Of a stretch of DNA of 64,000 bases, positions 4,326-30,106 are shown piece after piece (position 1 is the stretch's first letter; each line of letters opens with the position of its first letter). Both the position numbers and the translations under genes were made by a program. The stretch is taken from IMG/VR virus record IMGVR_UViG_3300037067_004891, positions 32,001 through 96,000 of that record; one strand, given 5' to 3'. The DNA is from a virus (taxonomy: Duplodnaviria > Caudoviricetes). The notes beneath the pieces are model-generated. The model worked only from the letters and a program-made list of their open reading frames with translations, did no database searches and was not told where the DNA came from.

Positions 4326-4658
4326 TATAAAATATGCAAATAATTGTACACCATGAATGTAAACTATTTAAAAAAATACCTGAAAAATTTATTTAAAAGG
4401 CACAAACAATTGAATATAACTGGTATTGTGTGTAATGTTTGTGGTTCTGACAATGTGAAATCAGAAACAAAAATAGAAGCGAAATTCAAAGTTAAAGGTA
4501 CTGGTATTCATCAAAGAAGATATGACTTCAGAGAATCATATGTTTCTCACACTTGTCAGAACTGTGGAAATGTGTGGAGATAAATATTACACAAACTATA
4601 AAATATGCAAATAATTGTACACCATGAATGAAAACGATTTAAAAGAATACTTGAAAAA
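4326..4658 (+). repeat. imperfect ~62-bp direct repeat (4326-4387 and 4597-4658) flanking a small Zn-finger ORF
   Basis: 34-nt identical core TATAAAATATGCAAATAATTGTACACCATGAATG in both copies. Confidence 0.85.
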
Positions 4659-5063
4659 ACATTTGAAGATAGAAATTAATTTATCTTACACTGGAAGAAC
4701 CGAGGTAAAATTATTATTGGATGATGAAGTTATTTCAGTAGATGCTGCTTCCAGTTATGGTAGTGGACATTGTGGGCCGATGTGAAAAATGAATGAATTA
4801 TGGCTTATTTAAAAATATTATTATCATCGATAAAAAACTAAATAAAAAAGAGAATAATCATGGAAATAATTAAACGAGGAAATCCATAGGGTAAAACAGT
4901 GGAAAGAACCTGCCAACATTGTGAAACTGAAATACGTGCTAAAGCATCCGAATTTAATAAAGGAGGTTCATTATCTGGTTGTTTTTTAAAATGTCCAGTA
5001 TGTGGCTTGCGTATTTTTTATTAAAATAAGATTTTTATATATACCATAAAAATATTGGTTTAT

Positions 5064-12992: not shown

Positions 12993-13967
12993 ATGACTGG
13001 TGAAGATTTATCTGTTAAGAAAAATAGAATAAAAGAATTACAAAGCCTTATATATTTCAAGAAAAAAGAATATGATTATAATAAGGCTATGCAGTTGGCA
13101 TTAAAGCTGACGTTAAATGGAACATATGGGGCTTTTGCTAATAAACATTTTGTTTGTTCTAATGCTGATATAGCCAATGCAATAACAGCACATGGTCGAG
13201 ATGTTATTCAATTTATGCTCAATAAAATCGAACAATATTTTTATTATGATTGGCATAATGATACAGAAGCACATGCGTTATTAGGCATGGAATATATTGG
13301 GGTCGAAAACAATATGTTTTGTTTTTATGATAGAAATTTAAATCAACTTGGATATCCTAAGAATTCTTTAGTCGAATTACTTGAAGTACGTGATTTAAAT
13401 GCAAATGAAATAAAAAAAATAAACAACATTGATAATAATAAAGGTATTGATATCCAATATGAATATTTTGTTCACGATTTTAATAATGTAAAACAATTAG
13501 ATGAAAACCCAATTTTTACAAAAGAAGGTGATACTGATTACGAAGGTTTTATTGCATACAAAGGTAAAAACCCTGTAACCATATATGGGGACACGGATAG
13601 CGTTCATAATCAGACAGTTATAAATGTATATGGGGAAAATATAATAGTAGAAGATTGGTATAATAAAAATATAAAAAATGGTTCGGCTGGTGTTACATTA
13701 AAAGGGCATGAATCCGTAAAAACTGATGATAAAATTTTGAACTGGTCAGAAGATGAAGGTTTATATTATGTTCCTGTTAAGAGAATAATAAGACATAAAG
13801 TCTCAAAAGAAAAGTGGAAATTAAAAACTAAATCAGGTAAAGAGATTATAGTAACCAATGACCATTCAATGATAGTTTTTAGAAATGATAAAAAAATAGA
13901 AATTAAACCAAGAGATATTTTAAAATTAGATAAAATATTAGCTATTAATGAACTACCACTAAACTAA
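12993..13967 (+). CDS. family B DNA polymerase palm fragment (motif B to motif C) fused to N-terminal split intein (IntN from 13599)
   Basis: KLTLNGTYG (motif B); YGDTD followed by Ser-start intein with block B 'VTNDHS'. Confidence 0.9.
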   Translation: MTGEDLSVKKNRIKELQSLIYFKKKEYDYNKAMQLALKLTLNGTYGAFANKHFVCSNADIANAITAHGRDVIQFMLNKIEQYFYYDWHNDTEAHALLGMEYIGVENNMFCFYDRNLNQLGYPKNSLVELLEVRDLNANEIKKINNIDNNKGIDIQYEYFVHDFNNVKQLDENPIFTKEGDTDYEGFIAYKGKNPVTIYGDTDSVHNQTVINVYGENIIVEDWYNKNIKNGSAGVTLKGHESVKTDDKILNWSEDEGLYYVPVKRIIRHKVSKEKWKLKTKSGKEIIVTNDHSMIVFRNDKKIEIKPRDILKLDKILAINELPLN

Positions 13968-15284
13968 AGATTTAGTGGTTTCTTGGGCTGAACTCGTAAC
14001 CGAATTCATAACTCCCGAAGCGTGAATTTCCTCCGTTCCAGAGGTATTATTTTTCACAAAACTAAAATTTTTAATATTATTTGATGCGTTTACATCTCTG
14101 TCATGTTTAGTTCCACATTTAGGACATATCCATTCTCTATCGGATAATTTCAAATCAGATTTAATATAACCACAAACAGAACACATTTTACTTGAAGGTT
14201 CAAATTGTCCAATTCTAATTATATTTTTTCCATACCATTCTGATTTGTAATCTAACATCCTATTGAATTCACTCCAACTAACATCCGATATAGACTGCGC
14301 TAAATTATGATTCTTAATCATCCCAGAAACATTCAGTGTTTCTAAACATAGTGTATCATAATCATCTATCAAAAATTTAGATGTTTTGTGCAGAAAATCA
14401 GTCCTTCTATTTGAAATTTTTTCATGTATAGATGACAAAATATGAACGGATTTTTTTCTATTATTAGAACCATTCACTTTTTTTGAATGTTTTCTCTGTC
14501 TAATTTTTAATCTTCTTAATGATTTTTTTAAATGTTTTGAATTATCAATCACTAAACCATCTGAAGTAACTAAAAATGATTTAATACCCAAATCAATTCC
14601 TATTGCTTGCTTCTCGTCAATAGGTTTTTTTCTTGGTAATTCTTGATTAATTTCAACTAATATAGAGATGTAATATTTTCCATTTGTTTTCATTGATATA
14701 GTTGAAGACCTTATTTCACCTTCAAATTTTCTATCAATGATAATTTTAATTCCTTTTTTGAATTTAGGTATATACAACAAGTTGTTTTCAAATTCAACAA
14801 CGGTATTCTGTGGAATTCCAAAAGATTTTTTAGGATTTTTCTTTGATTTGAATTTCGGATAACCACCCAGTTTTTTGAAGAATTTCGTAAAACCGTTGTC
14901 TAAATTTTCTAAACTATACTGTAATGATTGACTATTTACTTCCTTTAACCAAGATGTTTCTTCTTGTTTTTTTAATAATGGTATATTTTTTTGAATATCA
15001 AACCTTGAAATTCCTTTTTTTGTTTGAGTATATGTTTGATTTTTCAAATTTAATCCATAATTATACACCCATCTAACACAACCAAAGTGTTTGTGTATCA
15101 GAATTTTTTGTTCTGAATTAGGGTAAATTCTATATTTGAAAGTTTTCAACATATATTATTATATTATATATTTTAGAAAAAGTTTAATTTAATTCTAAAA
15201 TTATTTTCAACAAATAATATTTATATAATCAAAATTCATCCCACGAAACTGAAGATTTCGGGGATTTCTTTTGAAAAAATTTAA
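13949..15284 (-). mobile_element. IS200/IS605-family (IS1341-type, tnpB only) insertion sequence
   Basis: Subterminal hairpins at both ends (CCACTAAACTAAAGATTTAGTGG; CCCACGAAACTGAAGATTTCGGGG); right end terminates TTCA; TTTAT abuts the left end; no tnpA. Confidence 0.88.
13959..15152 (-). CDS. tnpB: RNA-guided endonuclease TnpB
   Basis: N-terminal HTH, GIDLG (RuvC-I), LETL (RuvC-II), CxxC...CxxC zinc ribbon, HDRDVNA (RuvC-III). Confidence 0.95.
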   Translation of the reverse strand: MLKTFKYRIYPNSEQKILIHKHFGCVRWVYNYGLNLKNQTYTQTKKGISRFDIQKNIPLLKKQEETSWLKEVNSQSLQYSLENLDNGFTKFFKKLGGYPKFKSKKNPKKSFGIPQNTVVEFENNLLYIPKFKKGIKIIIDRKFEGEIRSSTISMKTNGKYYISILVEINQELPRKKPIDEKQAIGIDLGIKSFLVTSDGLVIDNSKHLKKSLRRLKIRQRKHSKKVNGSNNRKKSVHILSSIHEKISNRRTDFLHKTSKFLIDDYDTLCLETLNVSGMIKNHNLAQSISDVSWSEFNRMLDYKSEWYGKNIIRIGQFEPSSKMCSVCGYIKSDLKLSDREWICPKCGTKHDRDVNASNNIKNFSFVKNNTSGTEEIHASGVMNSVTSSAQETTKSLV

Positions 15285-23418: not shown

Positions 23419-23506
23419 GGAGAGTTGGCAGAGTTGGTTGATTGCATCAGTCTTGAAAACTGACAAGCCCGTAAGGGCTTCGGGGGTTCGAATCCCTCAC
23501 TCTCCG
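23419..23506 (+). tRNA. tRNA-Ser(TGA)
   Basis: GGAGAGT/ACTCTCC acceptor, CTTGAAA loop, long variable arm. Confidence 0.95.
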
Positions 23507-23619
23507 CTTAATGTTCTTTGACGTATTGAAATAATTTTAATAGTTCGAATTAGTTTAGTTTATATTTAATTTGATAAATCGAACTTATCCATATTTTATA
23601 TATAAAAATAAAAATAAAT

Positions 23620-24384
23620 ATGGATAAGAACACATATCAAAATGTATTAAAATGGGCTAAAAAAATAAAAGCTATAAATTATCTTGGTGGTAAATGTGAT
23701 AAATGTGGTGATGATAATATTTTTCATTTAGTTTTTCATCATTTAGAATCATCAAACAAAGAAAAATGTATTAATAATTTAAAAAATAATAGATGGACTA
23801 TAATTGAAAAAGAATTAAAAAAGTGTCAATTACTTTGTAATAATTGTCATGCTGAAGTTCATTATAAACAAGATTTTTTAACTGCTTCGAGTAAGGATAC
23901 GGTTTTAAGAAAGATTAATAAAAATTTTTGTTTGGACTACAAAAATAATAAATGTGAAAAATGTGGATATGATAATAATGAACATGCTCTGGTTTTTCAT
24001 CATACAAAAGATAAAGAGTTTGAATTAAGTTGTATTAGATATGACATAGATTTAGTTGAGGTTAAAAAATTTTTAAAAGATGAATTAGATAAATGTTTAT
24101 TATTATGTAGAAATTGTCACGGTGAAGAACATATGGATATCATTTTTTTTGAAAAATATAAAAAAGAAATTTATAAAAAAGTAGAAAATTATAAAGAAAT
24201 ACAGAAAAAATTACCAGTAGATGATATAAAAAAACTATACGAAAATGGAATGACACAAAATAATATAGCTAAATATTATAACGCTTCTAAGGGGACTATT
24301 AGTGGTATTATAAGAAACATAAAAATGAAATATAATATGGGAAATTCGGCAATTGGAAGTCAATCTCTCTCCAAAAGAGAATAA
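23620..24384 (+). CDS. tandem HNH-domain homing endonuclease with C-terminal HTH
   Basis: Two C..CG...FHH...LC.NCH.E.H units. Confidence 0.8.
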   Translation: MDKNTYQNVLKWAKKIKAINYLGGKCDKCGDDNIFHLVFHHLESSNKEKCINNLKNNRWTIIEKELKKCQLLCNNCHAEVHYKQDFLTASSKDTVLRKINKNFCLDYKNNKCEKCGYDNNEHALVFHHTKDKEFELSCIRYDIDLVEVKKFLKDELDKCLLLCRNCHGEEHMDIIFFEKYKKEIYKKVENYKEIQKKLPVDDIKKLYENGMTQNNIAKYYNASKGTISGIIRNIKMKYNMGNSAIGSQSLSKRE

Positions 24385-24411
24385 GTGGTGGTTCGAGTCC
24401 ATCATTTCCCG
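24339..24411 (+). tRNA. tRNA-Trp(CCA)
   Basis: GGGAAAT/ATTTCCC acceptor; TCTCT-CTCCAAA-AGAGA anticodon arm. Confidence 0.85.
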
Positions 24412-24515
24412 CAAAAATGTTCTTTGAAGTATTGGGTTATTTATATTATGGAAAGTAGATGGTTACATTTTGTAACGGACTCAGATGAGTAATTTAATAA
24501 ACCCAAAAATAAAAT

Positions 24516-24589
24516 GTTGTGGTAGTTCAGTTGGTTAGAATACGACCCTGATAAGGTTGTGGTCGGTGGTTCAAGTCCACCTCACAACA
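24516..24589 (+). tRNA. tRNA-Ile(GAT)
   Basis: CGACC-CTGATAA-GGTTG; canonical D and T arms. Confidence 0.92.
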
Positions 24590-24599
24590 CATTTTTTTT

Positions 24600-24674
24600 G
24601 TCCTAATAGCTCAGTTGGTTCAGAGCAATTGCCTTACAAGCAATAGGTCGGTGGTCCGAATCCATCTTGGGACA
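24600..24674 (+). tRNA. tRNA-Val(TAC)
   Basis: ATTGC-CTTACAA-GCAAT; T-loop TCCGAAT. Confidence 0.9.
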
Positions 24675-24676
24675 CT

Positions 24677-24749
24677 GTGTCTGTGTAGTGTTGGCTCTAC
24701 AAAGTGATTGTGACTCACTTTTACGGGGATTCGATTTCCCTCAGACACC
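24677..24749 (+). tRNA. tRNA-His(GTG)
   Basis: AGTGA-TTGTGAC-TCACT; C discriminator; atypical D arm. Confidence 0.82.
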
Positions 24750-24787
24750 CACATTATCAATCATTTATGATTGAAGTTCTTTGACAT

Positions 24788-25029
24788 GTTGGTTGAAGGT
24801 TTTAAAATTTTCTGAAAGTAATCGTGAAAATTCGGTGAACTCTGAGATAAAACCTAATTTGGAAGTAAGTATAACTTACAGGCGTAACGCACATTTTCGA
24901 TTCAGAAAAACCATGAGCCGAGGAAGGGTCGGACAGGCACTGTGTGAGAAGTATTTATGAGTATGATTAGTTAGTAGTTGATGAAAGTATCTGGATGAAT
25001 AGTGTTTATGAGTAGGCATATGGGTAAAC
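24788..25029 (+). ncRNA. candidate structured ncRNA within tRNA array
   Basis: GC-elevated, no credible ORF; pairings TTTTCTGAA/TTCAGAAAA, GTAAGT/ACTTAC, GAAAAT/ATTTTC. Confidence 0.45.
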
Positions 25030-25114
25030 TCGTTTGTAGTTCAGTGGTAGAACAAGGGAACATCGTAAATGTGCTTAAATCCCTGTGTCGCAGGTTCGAA
25101 TCCTGTCAGGCGAG
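25030..25114 (+). tRNA. tRNA-like gene with 20-nt expanded anticodon loop (identity undetermined)
   Basis: TCGTTTG/CAGGCGA acceptor, canonical D and T arms, AGGGA-[20 nt]-TCCCT. Confidence 0.75.
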
Positions 25115-25130
25115 GTGACCATATGAAAAT

Positions 25131-25203
25131 GGAACGGTAGTAAAGTTGGTCAATACACCAAGCTGAAGACTTGGCAATAGTGGTTCGATTCCACTTCGTT
25201 CCA
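25131..25203 (+). tRNA. tRNA-Phe(GAA)
   Basis: CCAAG-CTGAAGA-CTTGG. Confidence 0.88.
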
Positions 25204-25208
25204 CAAAT

Positions 25209-25281
25209 GACCCAATAGCTCAATTGGTTGAGCCTCGCACTTTTAATGCGAAGGTTGTGGATTCGAGTTCCACTTGGGTCA
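25209..25281 (+). tRNA. tRNA-Lys(TTT)
   Basis: TCGCA-CTTTTAA-TGCGA. Confidence 0.9.
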
Positions 25282-25338
25282 CTTCGCACTATTTAGACCC
25301 ACAACTTTATAATATATACTAAAAAGAAATTATATAGT

Positions 25339-26939: not shown

Positions 26940-27140
26940 CAAAATTCGAATTAACACCTGAAGAAGAAAAACAGGTTGATAAATGGAAGAAAAAACAGCA
27001 AAAGAAAAATTCTGATACATTTACTCTTGGTGAAAGATGGACATATTCATTTACACCCACTGGATTAGGTACACTTAAATCAGTTCATGATAATTTGTTG
27101 GATGAAGAATTTACGATAAGTGGTACTGAAGATTGGTAGT

Positions 27141-27479
27141 ATGGAAGAAGAAACACTTGATATAATTCAAAAGATACAAGAAGCAAGAAATCCTAAGTAT
27201 TTCTTATGGCAAATTATCAAGAATATGGAATGGTTTGCCTCTGAGAAAATTGATAGATGGTCGATAGGTAAAAAAGATGGTATAGTTTATTTCGATTACG
27301 ATACAAAAAATCACATTTTATATTATGATTATTTTAAAATATATCAAGTTTTAAAAACGAAATATCATCTTAATGATCTAACTATTAATGAATTAATTAA
27401 GGGTATGGTGAGTGAACATTTCAAATTGAGGGTGGACACAACTATTTTTACGGACGCTTACCAATCCTACGGTGAGTGA
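27141..27479 (+). CDS. hypothetical protein whose C-terminus is encoded by a CRISPR-like repeat and spacer
   Basis: MEEETLD...KGMVSEHFKLRVDTTIFTDAYQSYGE*; VSEHFKLRVDT is read from repeat 1. Confidence 0.65.
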   Translation: MEEETLDIIQKIQEARNPKYFLWQIIKNMEWFASEKIDRWSIGKKDGIVYFDYDTKNHILYYDYFKIYQVLKTKYHLNDLTINELIKGMVSEHFKLRVDTTIFTDAYQSYGE

Positions 27480-27549
27480 ACATTTCAAATTGAGGGTGGA
27501 CACAACTCGTAAAGATTATTCGTGCTAAAGTTTGATGGTGAGTGAATAT
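27407..27549. CRISPR. CRISPR-like mini-array (2 full 36-nt repeats + 1 truncated; spacers 28 and 30 nt), no cas genes in window
   Basis: GGTGAGTGAACATTTCAAATTGAGGGTGGACACAAC at 27407-27442 and 27471-27506; partial GGTGAGTGAAtAT at 27537. Confidence 0.6.
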
Positions 27550-27574
27550 ATAAATTATTTATAAAACAATAATT

Positions 27575-27718
27575 TGGGGTGACCCGATTTGAATGGGTAC
27601 TTCCTGATTAAGGTGCTGTGACATTATCTTGTACTAATCTCACCCATCAACTAAAGTAATCAACTTTAGGCTATTATAAGGCTACTGTCAGTCGAGTTTT
27701 CCAGTTCCACCACACCCC
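27575..27718 (-). ncRNA. tRNA-like RNA with ~80-nt insert in place of the anticodon loop
   Basis: GGGGTG/CACCCC acceptor, GTGGAACTGG D-loop, ACCCA-TTCAAAT-CGGGT T arm; TATATTTG promoter element at 27746-27739. Confidence 0.65.
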
Positions 27719-27904
27719 AAAATATATGTTTATAGCAACAAATATAAAACATTTCATTCATATTTAAAATTAAAGTTTACATTAATTTATCACATTTGAG
27801 TTATACATTAAAATATTTTATATTTGCGACTGATATAAAATATTTACCTGTAATTTTTTTTATAATATTTCTTTTATTATTTTTGACTCATAAAATATAC
27901 AGAT

Positions 27905-29164: not shown

Positions 29165-29238
29165 GTTCGTGTAATTCAGTTGGTTAGAAATTCAATCTTA
29201 TACATTGGCAGTCGTAGGTTCGAGTCCTACCGCGAACA
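29165..29238 (+). tRNA. tRNA-Ile(TAT)
   Basis: GTTCGTG/CGCGAAC; TCAAT-CTTATAC-ATTGG. Confidence 0.85.
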
Positions 29239-29244
29239 CAACAT

Positions 29245-29318
29245 TCCCCAGTAGCATAACTGAATTATGTATCTCACTACGGATGAGAAGATTGTTGGTT
29301 TGAATCCAACCTGGGGAA
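29245..29318 (+). tRNA. tRNA-Arg(ACG)
   Basis: TCCCCAG/CTGGGGA; TCTCA-CTACGGA-TGAGA. Confidence 0.87.
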
Positions 29319-29360
29319 CTTTTTAAAATATTTTTTTAAAGAAAAAATAATATATAAGTT

Positions 29361-29540
29361 ATGAAAGAATTACATTATTACCCCAATTTAAAGGGTCAGA
29401 GGAAGAATGGTTGGATCAGTGGATGGACACAACCAAAGGGAAAATTCTGGAAACGGAATGCAAATAAGAAATTAAGAAAACAAAACGTACCTGATGGTAA
29501 ATTTTATAAAAAAACATGGGGTTGGTTTGAGTGGTCTTAA
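29361..29540 (+). CDS. small basic Trp-rich protein (59 aa, not in ORF track)
   Basis: MKELHYYPNLKGQRKNGW...KKTWGWFEWS*. Confidence 0.55.
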   Translation: MKELHYYPNLKGQRKNGWISGWTQPKGKFWKRNANKKLRKQNVPDGKFYKKTWGWFEWS

Positions 29541-30009
29541 AAAATAAAAATATTTTATTATGGGAATGTTTGATAGGGTTATAGTAAATATAGGTATGCT
29601 TCCATTGAGTCATTCGGAAAAACAAATAATATATGATGCATCTAAAAATGATATTGAATTTGATTTTCAAACAAAAGATTTTGAGAATGTTTTAACTGAA
29701 ATTTATATCACTGATGATGGTTTATTGCAGATTAATGATTGGGAATATGAAACTGTAACATTAGAAGAAAGACCACATTCTGGTGCAACTGGTTTATTAA
29801 AAATGGCTGGATGTTTAAGAAGGGTCAATCAACGATTGGTTACTCAGGAAGATTACACGGGTGTTTTTAATTTTTATACATATTTTGAAAAAAAACTTTT
29901 TGAATTTAATGCCACATTTATACATGGAAAATTAGAAAAAATTGATAGGGTATTTGAGTAAAATGAAATAAAACGTGGAGTAAGAAAAGAAAAATTGAAT
30001 GATATATTT

Positions 30010-30100
30010 GGAGAGTAGCCGAATGTCGGTTAGTCGGGGCTGTCTGCTAAACAGTTGCTCGTTGAAAAATGGGTCGTAGATTCGACTTCTACACTCTCCG
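30010..30100 (+). tRNA. tRNA-Ser(GCT)
   Basis: GGAGAGT/ACTCTCC; CTGT-CTGCTAA-ACAG; long variable arm. Confidence 0.9.
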
Positions 30101-30106
30101 CTTAAA

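Follow-up and report, generated by a model that had tools for sequence, protein, structure and literature searches.

A dispersed gene-array cassette with a coding leader and a Cas13b-like repeat in cas-less CRISPR arrays of megaphages

We analysed a mini-array of 36-nt repeats that starts inside a small protein gene of a viral genome. The window, that is, the whole stretch of DNA under analysis (64,000 nt), corresponds to bases 32001-96000 of a 421,673-bp IMG/VR virus record (G000; ~25% G+C). In the explanation that we consider best, and to which we give somewhat better than an even chance, the array belongs to a variable gene-array cassette, dispersed in several copies, that carries no cas genes, has a Cas13b-like repeat and a coding leader, and would depend on its host for both effector and adaptation. 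Its carriers would be megaphages of landfill and groundwater, of the Lak-like Mahaphage type.

The cassette in the window and its relatives

The gene in question (27141..27479, + strand) encodes a small conserved protein of 112 aa, composed of 89 residues, 12 repeat-encoded residues and a spacer-encoded tail. The 36-nt repeat, GGTGAGTGAACATTTCAAATTGAGGGTGGACACAAC, is present in the window in two exact copies, at 27407-27442 and 27471-27506 (both +), a match obtained in none of the shuffles (0/100). Repeat 1 also forms codons 89 (third base) to 101 of the gene (M-VSEHFKLRVDTT), and spacer 1 (28 nt, 27443..27470, +) is translated as the C-terminal tail. Repeat 2, the same as repeat 1, is out of frame and supplies the stop codon, a TGA at 27477-27479 read as GGT GAG TGA; the stop lies there because spacer 1 is 28 and not 30 nt long, which shifts the frame. 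The trailing spacer (spacer 2, 30 nt, 27507..27536, +) is followed by a truncated and degenerate terminal repeat (27537..27549, +) matching in 12 of its 13 first bases, and a truncated terminal copy of the same kind also closes the other arrays of the genome. The initial annotation had described a pair of identical repeats (36 nt) with an incomplete third copy, separated by 28- and 30-nt spacers, and had placed repeat 1 in frame, the tail in spacer 1 and the stop in repeat 2. All of this turned out to be correct; the annotation had missed the many other cassettes, the conserved family of small genes and the related repeats beside TnpB/Cas12f-like genes of the phages. Its statement that no cas gene is present in the window held for known Cas effectors; an unlinked TnpB-like ORF lies ~12 kb upstream. 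This 398-aa ORF (~13959-15155, - strand) has a Cas12f1-like TNB domain (PF07282, 8e-25), is one of about seven such genes in G000 and adjoins no array.

Comparison of the two window spacers with phages gave no target, either for their cores in exact scans of IMG/VR or among the megaphage genomes compared. The mini-array itself recurs without a change in contigs of three runs, which come from two studies. Downstream of it, a 22-nt inverted repeat (GGGGTG...CACCCC) brackets window positions 27560-27734, within a segment that is absent from related phages; the bracketed stretch has no Rfam match, and its fold signal is not above that of shuffles. The cassette region is flanked by 11 tRNA genes on the + strand, at 23419-25282 and 29165-30101 (Ser, Trp, Ile, Val, His, Tyr, Phe, Lys, Ile-tat, Arg, and Ser).

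Among GenBank phages, G000 resembles at the DNA level solely the Prevotella Lak megaphages, and these weakly; the stretch covered by the window is present in landfill and groundwater metagenomes. Recoding of TAG, as in Lak phages, left the ORF lengths of G000 unchanged, and code 11 was therefore retained. CRISPR arrays of 'unknown' subtype have been reported for landfill megaphages of 641, 678, and 508 kb in a 2025 paper that places those phages among the Mahaphages, predicted to infect Bacteroidetes (PMC12607003). None of the megaphage arrays had a viral target in the data of that paper, according to its authors; here, by contrast, we found exact matches to the carrier itself and to related megaphages (see below). 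For Lak A1/A2, no CRISPR repeat was found (PMC6784885).

We then determined the distribution of the repeat in the rest of the genome and in related phages. G000 carries six arrays of this one repeat family, with 2, 3, 7, 7, 5, and 10 repeats and unrelated spacers. A paralogue of the window ORF precedes every one of the arrays (6/6), with an identical junction, ...GGTAT|GGTGAGTG, and a seventh paralogue has no array and ends in a decayed repeat-like sequence. Among IMG/VR relatives, cassettes were found in the complete genome G001 (12 cassettes; 639,979 bp), in G002 (2 cassettes; 675,678 bp) and, in further copies, in two fragments. The full-length paralogues numbered 23, with 18 linked to an array, 2 followed by a single intact repeat and 3 by a decayed repeat. 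When two of the large arrays were compared with GenBank phages, neither repeat nor spacer was matched. On one of the related phage fragments (L014:1560-1690), ~900 bp downstream of a cassette, a solitary repeat gives the stop (GGT GAG TGA) to a different small ORF.

The window cassette and ~300 bp beside it form a variable segment (27139..27847), which is absent or replaced in a pair of related megaphages and also in contigs from two further runs. The orthologous site of G001 and G002 has a different small gene in place of the cassette, and in the contigs of runs X3 and X4, 163 nt of other sequence stand where the window has 27138-27848. Cassettes of the orthologous type in different phages have no spacers in common. 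On these genome comparisons, the cassette is an accessory, variable element.

Spacers, polarity and self-matches of the arrays

The 54 inner spacers of five genomes are 28 to 32 nt long, apart from a single spacer of 36 nt, most often measure 30 nt, and are mutually unrelated, the sole repetition among them being one duplicated spacer. The duplication lies in a five-repeat cassette array (G001 4342-4660), where the same 30-nt spacer occurs twice in a row, which points to recombination or slippage and not to a second acquisition. The mean G+C content of the spacers is 0.34, compared with 0.25 for the genomes.

The arrays have a polarity. Of the repeats in the 10-repeat array, the eight nearest the gene are of a variant that matches the Ile codon of the array's own gene, the ninth carries a deletion, and the last is the variant of the window with one mismatch. 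A similar gradient was seen in other arrays, with proximal repeats matching the gene's codons and distal ones ancestral or degenerate.

For twelve spacers, none of them from the window, a match with 0 to 3 mismatches was found in the carrier or in a related megaphage genome. Four of these are perfect matches to the carrier phage's own genome, and others match related phages; the protospacers lie in genes for a helicase, a tail fibre, a glycosyltransferase and unknowns, and the spacers copy either orientation. Self-matching spacers are enriched at the gene-proximal position 1 (6/17, compared with 1/34 at later positions; Fisher p=0.004), and because they are concentrated there, integration at the gene-repeat junction, with the coding repeat copied each time, fits the data. 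All four perfect self-matches are in the orientation unable to pair with the target mRNA (p=0.06), and two antisense self-matches carry one mismatch each; this is the pattern that selection by an RNA-targeting effector would leave, at p=0.06 only.

In the flanks, NAAA occurred on the leader-distal (3') side of 5 of 11 protospacers (nominal p=5e-4). Having been picked post hoc in an A-rich coding context, it was rejected as a PAM.

Taken by their sequence, the cassette arrays are genuine cas-less CRISPR arrays. The features by which CRISPR arrays are generally recognized, namely identical direct repeats of 23 to 50 nt with unique spacers, polarity, and protospacers in mobile elements, were all found.

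The small protein and the two codes of its repeat

Homology among the paralogues begins exactly at the ATG, and pairwise dN/dS over the 88 codons that precede the repeat is 0.16 to 0.41. Because of these ratios, the small ORF is a real gene under purifying selection. Close homologues found by a word-based search numbered 17 and came from metagenomes without exception; every one of them (17/17) carries the repeat-encoded peptide followed by an unrelated, variable tail. A profile search over 1.84 billion representatives extended the family to 224 clusters at E<=0.001, and even members that are only 23 to 38% identical to the protein of the window have a related peptide at their end, which several of them repeat. 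A 10-residue word recurs 21 to 23 residues further on in 32 of 166 family proteins (at least 19%), the distance being 22 in all but two. Were every member array-linked, a second repeat would be expected in ~26%, an expectation that takes into account how many spacers are 30 nt long and how likely a stop codon is.

Three distant members were confirmed at the DNA level, with 36-nt repeats, 30-nt spacers and 27 to 28% G+C. Among four contexts of distant members, three were contigs of <1.2 kb and one a phage-like contig of 50 kb with no cas gene near the member. Most of the other distant members in the cluster look-up were on contigs of <2.5 kb, since arrays break assemblies.

The small protein had no match in Pfam (TnpB-type domains included), PHROG or Atlas, and no significant match to a solved structure (best Foldseek E 0.27; best VIA Z 3.7). 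In the AlphaFold2 model of the 112-aa protein (pLDDT 87), the last helix, residues 79-94, extends into the repeat-encoded part.

To our knowledge, CRISPR leaders have been assumed to be non-coding and CRISPR repeats to be free of coding constraint. The repeat of the cassettes is open in a single frame, which is the frame used by the gene. In the paralogues without an array, the 5' half of the repeat is kept (86% identity to the consensus) and the 3' half is lost (63%), whereas in the array-linked paralogues both halves are at 88%. Because the 5' half is retained and the 3' half is not, the comparison indicates, in a small sample with three decayed copies, that the 5' half would be constrained by the protein and the 3' half by the array. 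One repeat would thus carry two codes, with a protein helix holding its 5' half and array function its 3' half. The initial annotation had offered, as its second option, that spacer capture diversifies the C-terminus of the protein; this is literally true as a consequence, but not as to a function of the tails, which are random and of variable length and frame.

A further suggestion, tentative and in our judgement rather unlikely to prove right, is that the small protein is a dedicated phage CRISPR-associated factor outside the known Cas set, acting directly on its array. The protein and the guide RNAs would come from one transcript, the gene ending in the first repeat. The protein might label the junction of gene and repeat as the place where spacers are to be integrated, or might bind the repeat RNA and so deliver, shield or redirect the guides.

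Candidate effectors and alternative readings

When GGTNNACACAAC was searched for as a spaced pair in 185,579 species genomes, ~80 loci were obtained, mostly in Bacteroidota and with a canonical 36-nt repeat. Both of the arrays with this ending that were checked adjoin Cas13b (NF038190), in Hoylesella saccharolytica (E 5e-240) and in a Bacteroidales MAG (7e-218). The phage repeat resembles the Cas13b-adjacent, type VI-B arrays in its 36-nt length, its ~30-nt spacers, its 3' end and its end-to-end pairing register. It differs in its 5' end, which is GGTG where type VI-B repeats are recognized by GTTG, and in the loss of the stable inner stem-loop that also marks them: pair 12-25 is never formed and pair 9-28 is formed in 35% of the variants, and the fold energy is -0.4 to -5.7 kcal/mol, compared with -9.5 to -13 kcal/mol for Cas13b-linked repeats. 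Even the nearest bacterial repeat has 10 to 13 mismatches over 36 positions. The coding leader, the translated first repeat and the lack of cas13b in the phages also set the cassettes apart from type VI-B arrays.

Cas13b (NF038190) and Cas1 were not found in G000-G003 (two of G000-G002 are 98 to 100% complete), and no large ORF with paired HEPN motifs (two RxxxxH) was present in the phage genomes examined. Cas12a (TIGR04330) was not found in the phages, but this negative is a weak one, since the control genomes gave no match either. The phage repeat was absent from the bacterial genomes and non-phage metagenome contigs searched. In Rfam, including its CRISPR-DR families, the array and its 3' flank had no match at the gathering threshold or at E<=1. 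On chromosomes of several Sphingobacterium species (L144, L149, L152, and L153), we observed clusters of short, degenerate Cas13b-like repeat pairs with irregular spacing, very variable 5' halves, a constant end, GGTATACACAAC, and no upstream ORF.

Since G001 carries a cas-less array of Cas12a type, with a repeat ending in CCTACTATTGTAGGT, these phages do keep arrays without effectors. Cas-less arrays other than the cassettes lie at 177771-178013, 288240-288951, and 395611-395733 in G001 and at 130441-130890 in G002; one is Cas12a-like, and an 11-repeat and an 8-repeat array are built on two other 36-nt repeats. Huge phages have been described with cas-less arrays that may use host Cas proteins (PMC7162821). 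The cassettes resemble these and other viral cas-less or mini-arrays in being short, in having no genes for adaptation or interference and in being thought to use host Cas proteins against competitors (PMC7162821, PMC12607003, PMC10120712). A conserved fusion of a gene to the first repeat, multi-copy gene-array cassettes and newest spacers that match the carrier itself are not described in the passages of these papers covered here. A limited literature search likewise found no prior description of a coding leader or a translated first repeat.

The cassettes could also be extra arrays for a miniature type V effector (TnpB/Cas12f-like) of the phage, with crRNAs built repeat-then-spacer and DNA of competitors as the target. 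We think this unlikely, although related repeats directly downstream of two non-orthologous TnpB/Cas12f-like phage genes do speak against a Cas13b partnership. In G000, a 423-aa protein (genome positions 191,010-192,281) has a Cas12f1-like TNB domain (1.6e-15) and is closest, among solved structures, to 8hr5 (deposition name 'Transposase', 6.6e-36) and to the Cas12f effector 9nzo (1.8e-32). A six-repeat array follows ~217 nt past its gene on the same strand, with a repeat that shares CAAATTGAG.GGT and ~62% identity with the cassette repeat, and a decayed cassette lies directly upstream. G002 has kept the gene of the 423-aa protein, at 94% identity and with an array. In G001, a related array lies behind another TnpB-like gene, one of 502 aa; moreover, a tail-fibre gene of another phage is matched both by a spacer of the Cas12f-adjacent array and by a cassette spacer. 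The cassettes recall TnpB omega-RNA/Cas12f loci, in which the guide scaffold overlaps the 3' end of the protein gene and the guide comes after it, and the phages themselves have TnpB/Cas12f-like genes accompanied by related arrays; the cassette gene, however, encodes only ~100 aa without a TnpB-type domain. For a DNA cutter, the four perfect self-matches would be suicidal. The 5' flanks of 11 protospacers share no PAM or TAM motif, and no complementary stretch stood out genome-wide as an anti-repeat or tracrRNA, a search in which a short or imperfect one could be missed. In the complete G001, which has 12 cassettes, the 423-aa protein finds no homologue at E<=1e-5, other TnpB-like genes have no repeat-like sequence downstream, and the repeats adjacent to the G000 and G002 effectors, themselves 94% identical, differ throughout the 5' half and have only the 3' half in common. 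Nor does a RuvC-type effector gene lie beside any cassette, the TnpB/Cas12f-like genes of G000, G001, and G002 flanking other, related arrays.

Two further readings concern the use of the repeats themselves. The cassettes may be RNA decoys or integration sinks and not guides, tying up the host effector and/or diverting new spacers, with spacer content as a by-product; this we regard as less likely again. It would account for the 6 to 12 copies per genome, for the lack of an effector beside the cassettes, for the solitary single-repeat copies, and for newest spacers that are mostly self-derived, as expected from integration during phage replication, and extraneous crRNAs lower Cas13b defence experimentally (PMC13187072). 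With a weak hairpin and 10 or more mismatches to any known host repeat, tight binding of the effector is uncertain, however; some spacers match other megaphages, which suits a guide function, and the conserved protein is left unexplained. The reading of the repeats as primarily protein-coding, either a C-terminal tandem repeat or a tail-diversifying device that resembles CRISPR by chance, is in our view very improbable. The single open frame of the repeat is that of the gene, the 66-nt unit keeps the frame (nearly all units of G001 are 66 nt), the repeat-encoded peptide motif is kept in very diverged members, and the model places residues 89-94 in the last helix. Yet the spacers range from 28 to 32 nt, so that in most cases the frame is shifted and translation soon stops, the tails are unrelated in sequence and length, the arrays extend up to 10 units past the stop codon, and the paralogues without an array lose the 3' half of the repeat. 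Moreover, no two spacers resemble each other, and some reproduce stretches of unrelated phage genes exactly, in one orientation or the other; the ordinary protein-coding tandem repeat, the third option of the initial annotation, is rejected on these grounds.

Two observations belong to the loci named above. At G000 190601-192881 (L022:1101-3366), the order is decayed cassette, 423-aa Cas12f/TnpB-like gene and six-repeat array, and in the decayed cassette the first 36 codons of the small gene run directly into the final 21 nt of the repeat. In a tail-fibre-like gene of another phage fragment (G004, L119; 3992-5428), a G000 cassette spacer matches with one mismatch and a spacer of the Cas12f-adjacent array matches ~100 bp away with three.

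Phage solitary repeat units, or RNA anti-CRISPRs, have reportedly been described by Camara-Wilpert et al. in 2023. The cassettes are like them in that phage repeat copies could compete for the host effector, and solitary single-repeat cassettes are found here too; they are unlike them in that most are true arrays, with spacers that turn over, and are linked to a gene for a protein.

As the partner we favour, and hold loosely, an effector that the host would provide in trans, probably of the Cas13b type, because the self-matches, the lack of a 5' motif and of an anti-repeat, and the absence of a TnpB gene next to the cassettes all oppose a DNA-cutting partner. The first option of the initial annotation, a mini-array that uses or decoys host Cas, is accordingly the one that fared best, given the shared length and 3' end and the lack of Cas13b and Cas1 in the phages, although the GGTG 5' end, the weak hairpin and the lack of a bacterial carrier weigh against it. 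In this host-dependent scheme, adaptation enzymes of the host would integrate new spacers in trans at the gene-repeat junction, and each integration would copy the coding repeat and rewrite the protein tail. Type VI-B arrays without their own cas1 and cas2 do acquire spacers in trans, self-derived ones included; the motif flanking the protospacers of the array studied there is on the side opposite that of the cassettes' NAAA, a point against the type VI-B reading (PMC8092290). The array would be transcribed along with the mRNA of the gene, and the crRNAs would be used by an effector in trans, most likely a host nuclease like Cas13b, with the small protein as an array-linked factor from the same transcript. 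The guides would act against competing related megaphages, a role suggested because several spacers match other phages, and/or the arrays would soak up the effector and the spacer-integration capacity of the host; the role of an integration sink is suggested because the newest spacers are self-derived. The three roles, as guides, in crRNA competition and as an integration sink, fit the data and are not mutually exclusive.

The gene-plus-array design is widespread in metagenomes and seemingly undescribed in the literature searched. Spanning more than 200 diverged metagenomic protein clusters, it has been overlooked at scale, likely because assemblies tend to break at arrays and because gene prediction simply carries the ORF on into the array. 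The proteins concerned are candidates for a new array-linked family. The very short, AT-rich variants of a Cas13b-like repeat provide a test of how far an effector tolerates changes of its repeat. Phage arrays that fill with the phage's own DNA are a natural case that bears on how phages exploit or blunt the CRISPR adaptation of their hosts. If the small protein were indeed a dedicated factor, the cassettes would represent a phage-specific CRISPR-like system outside the known set of Cas genes.
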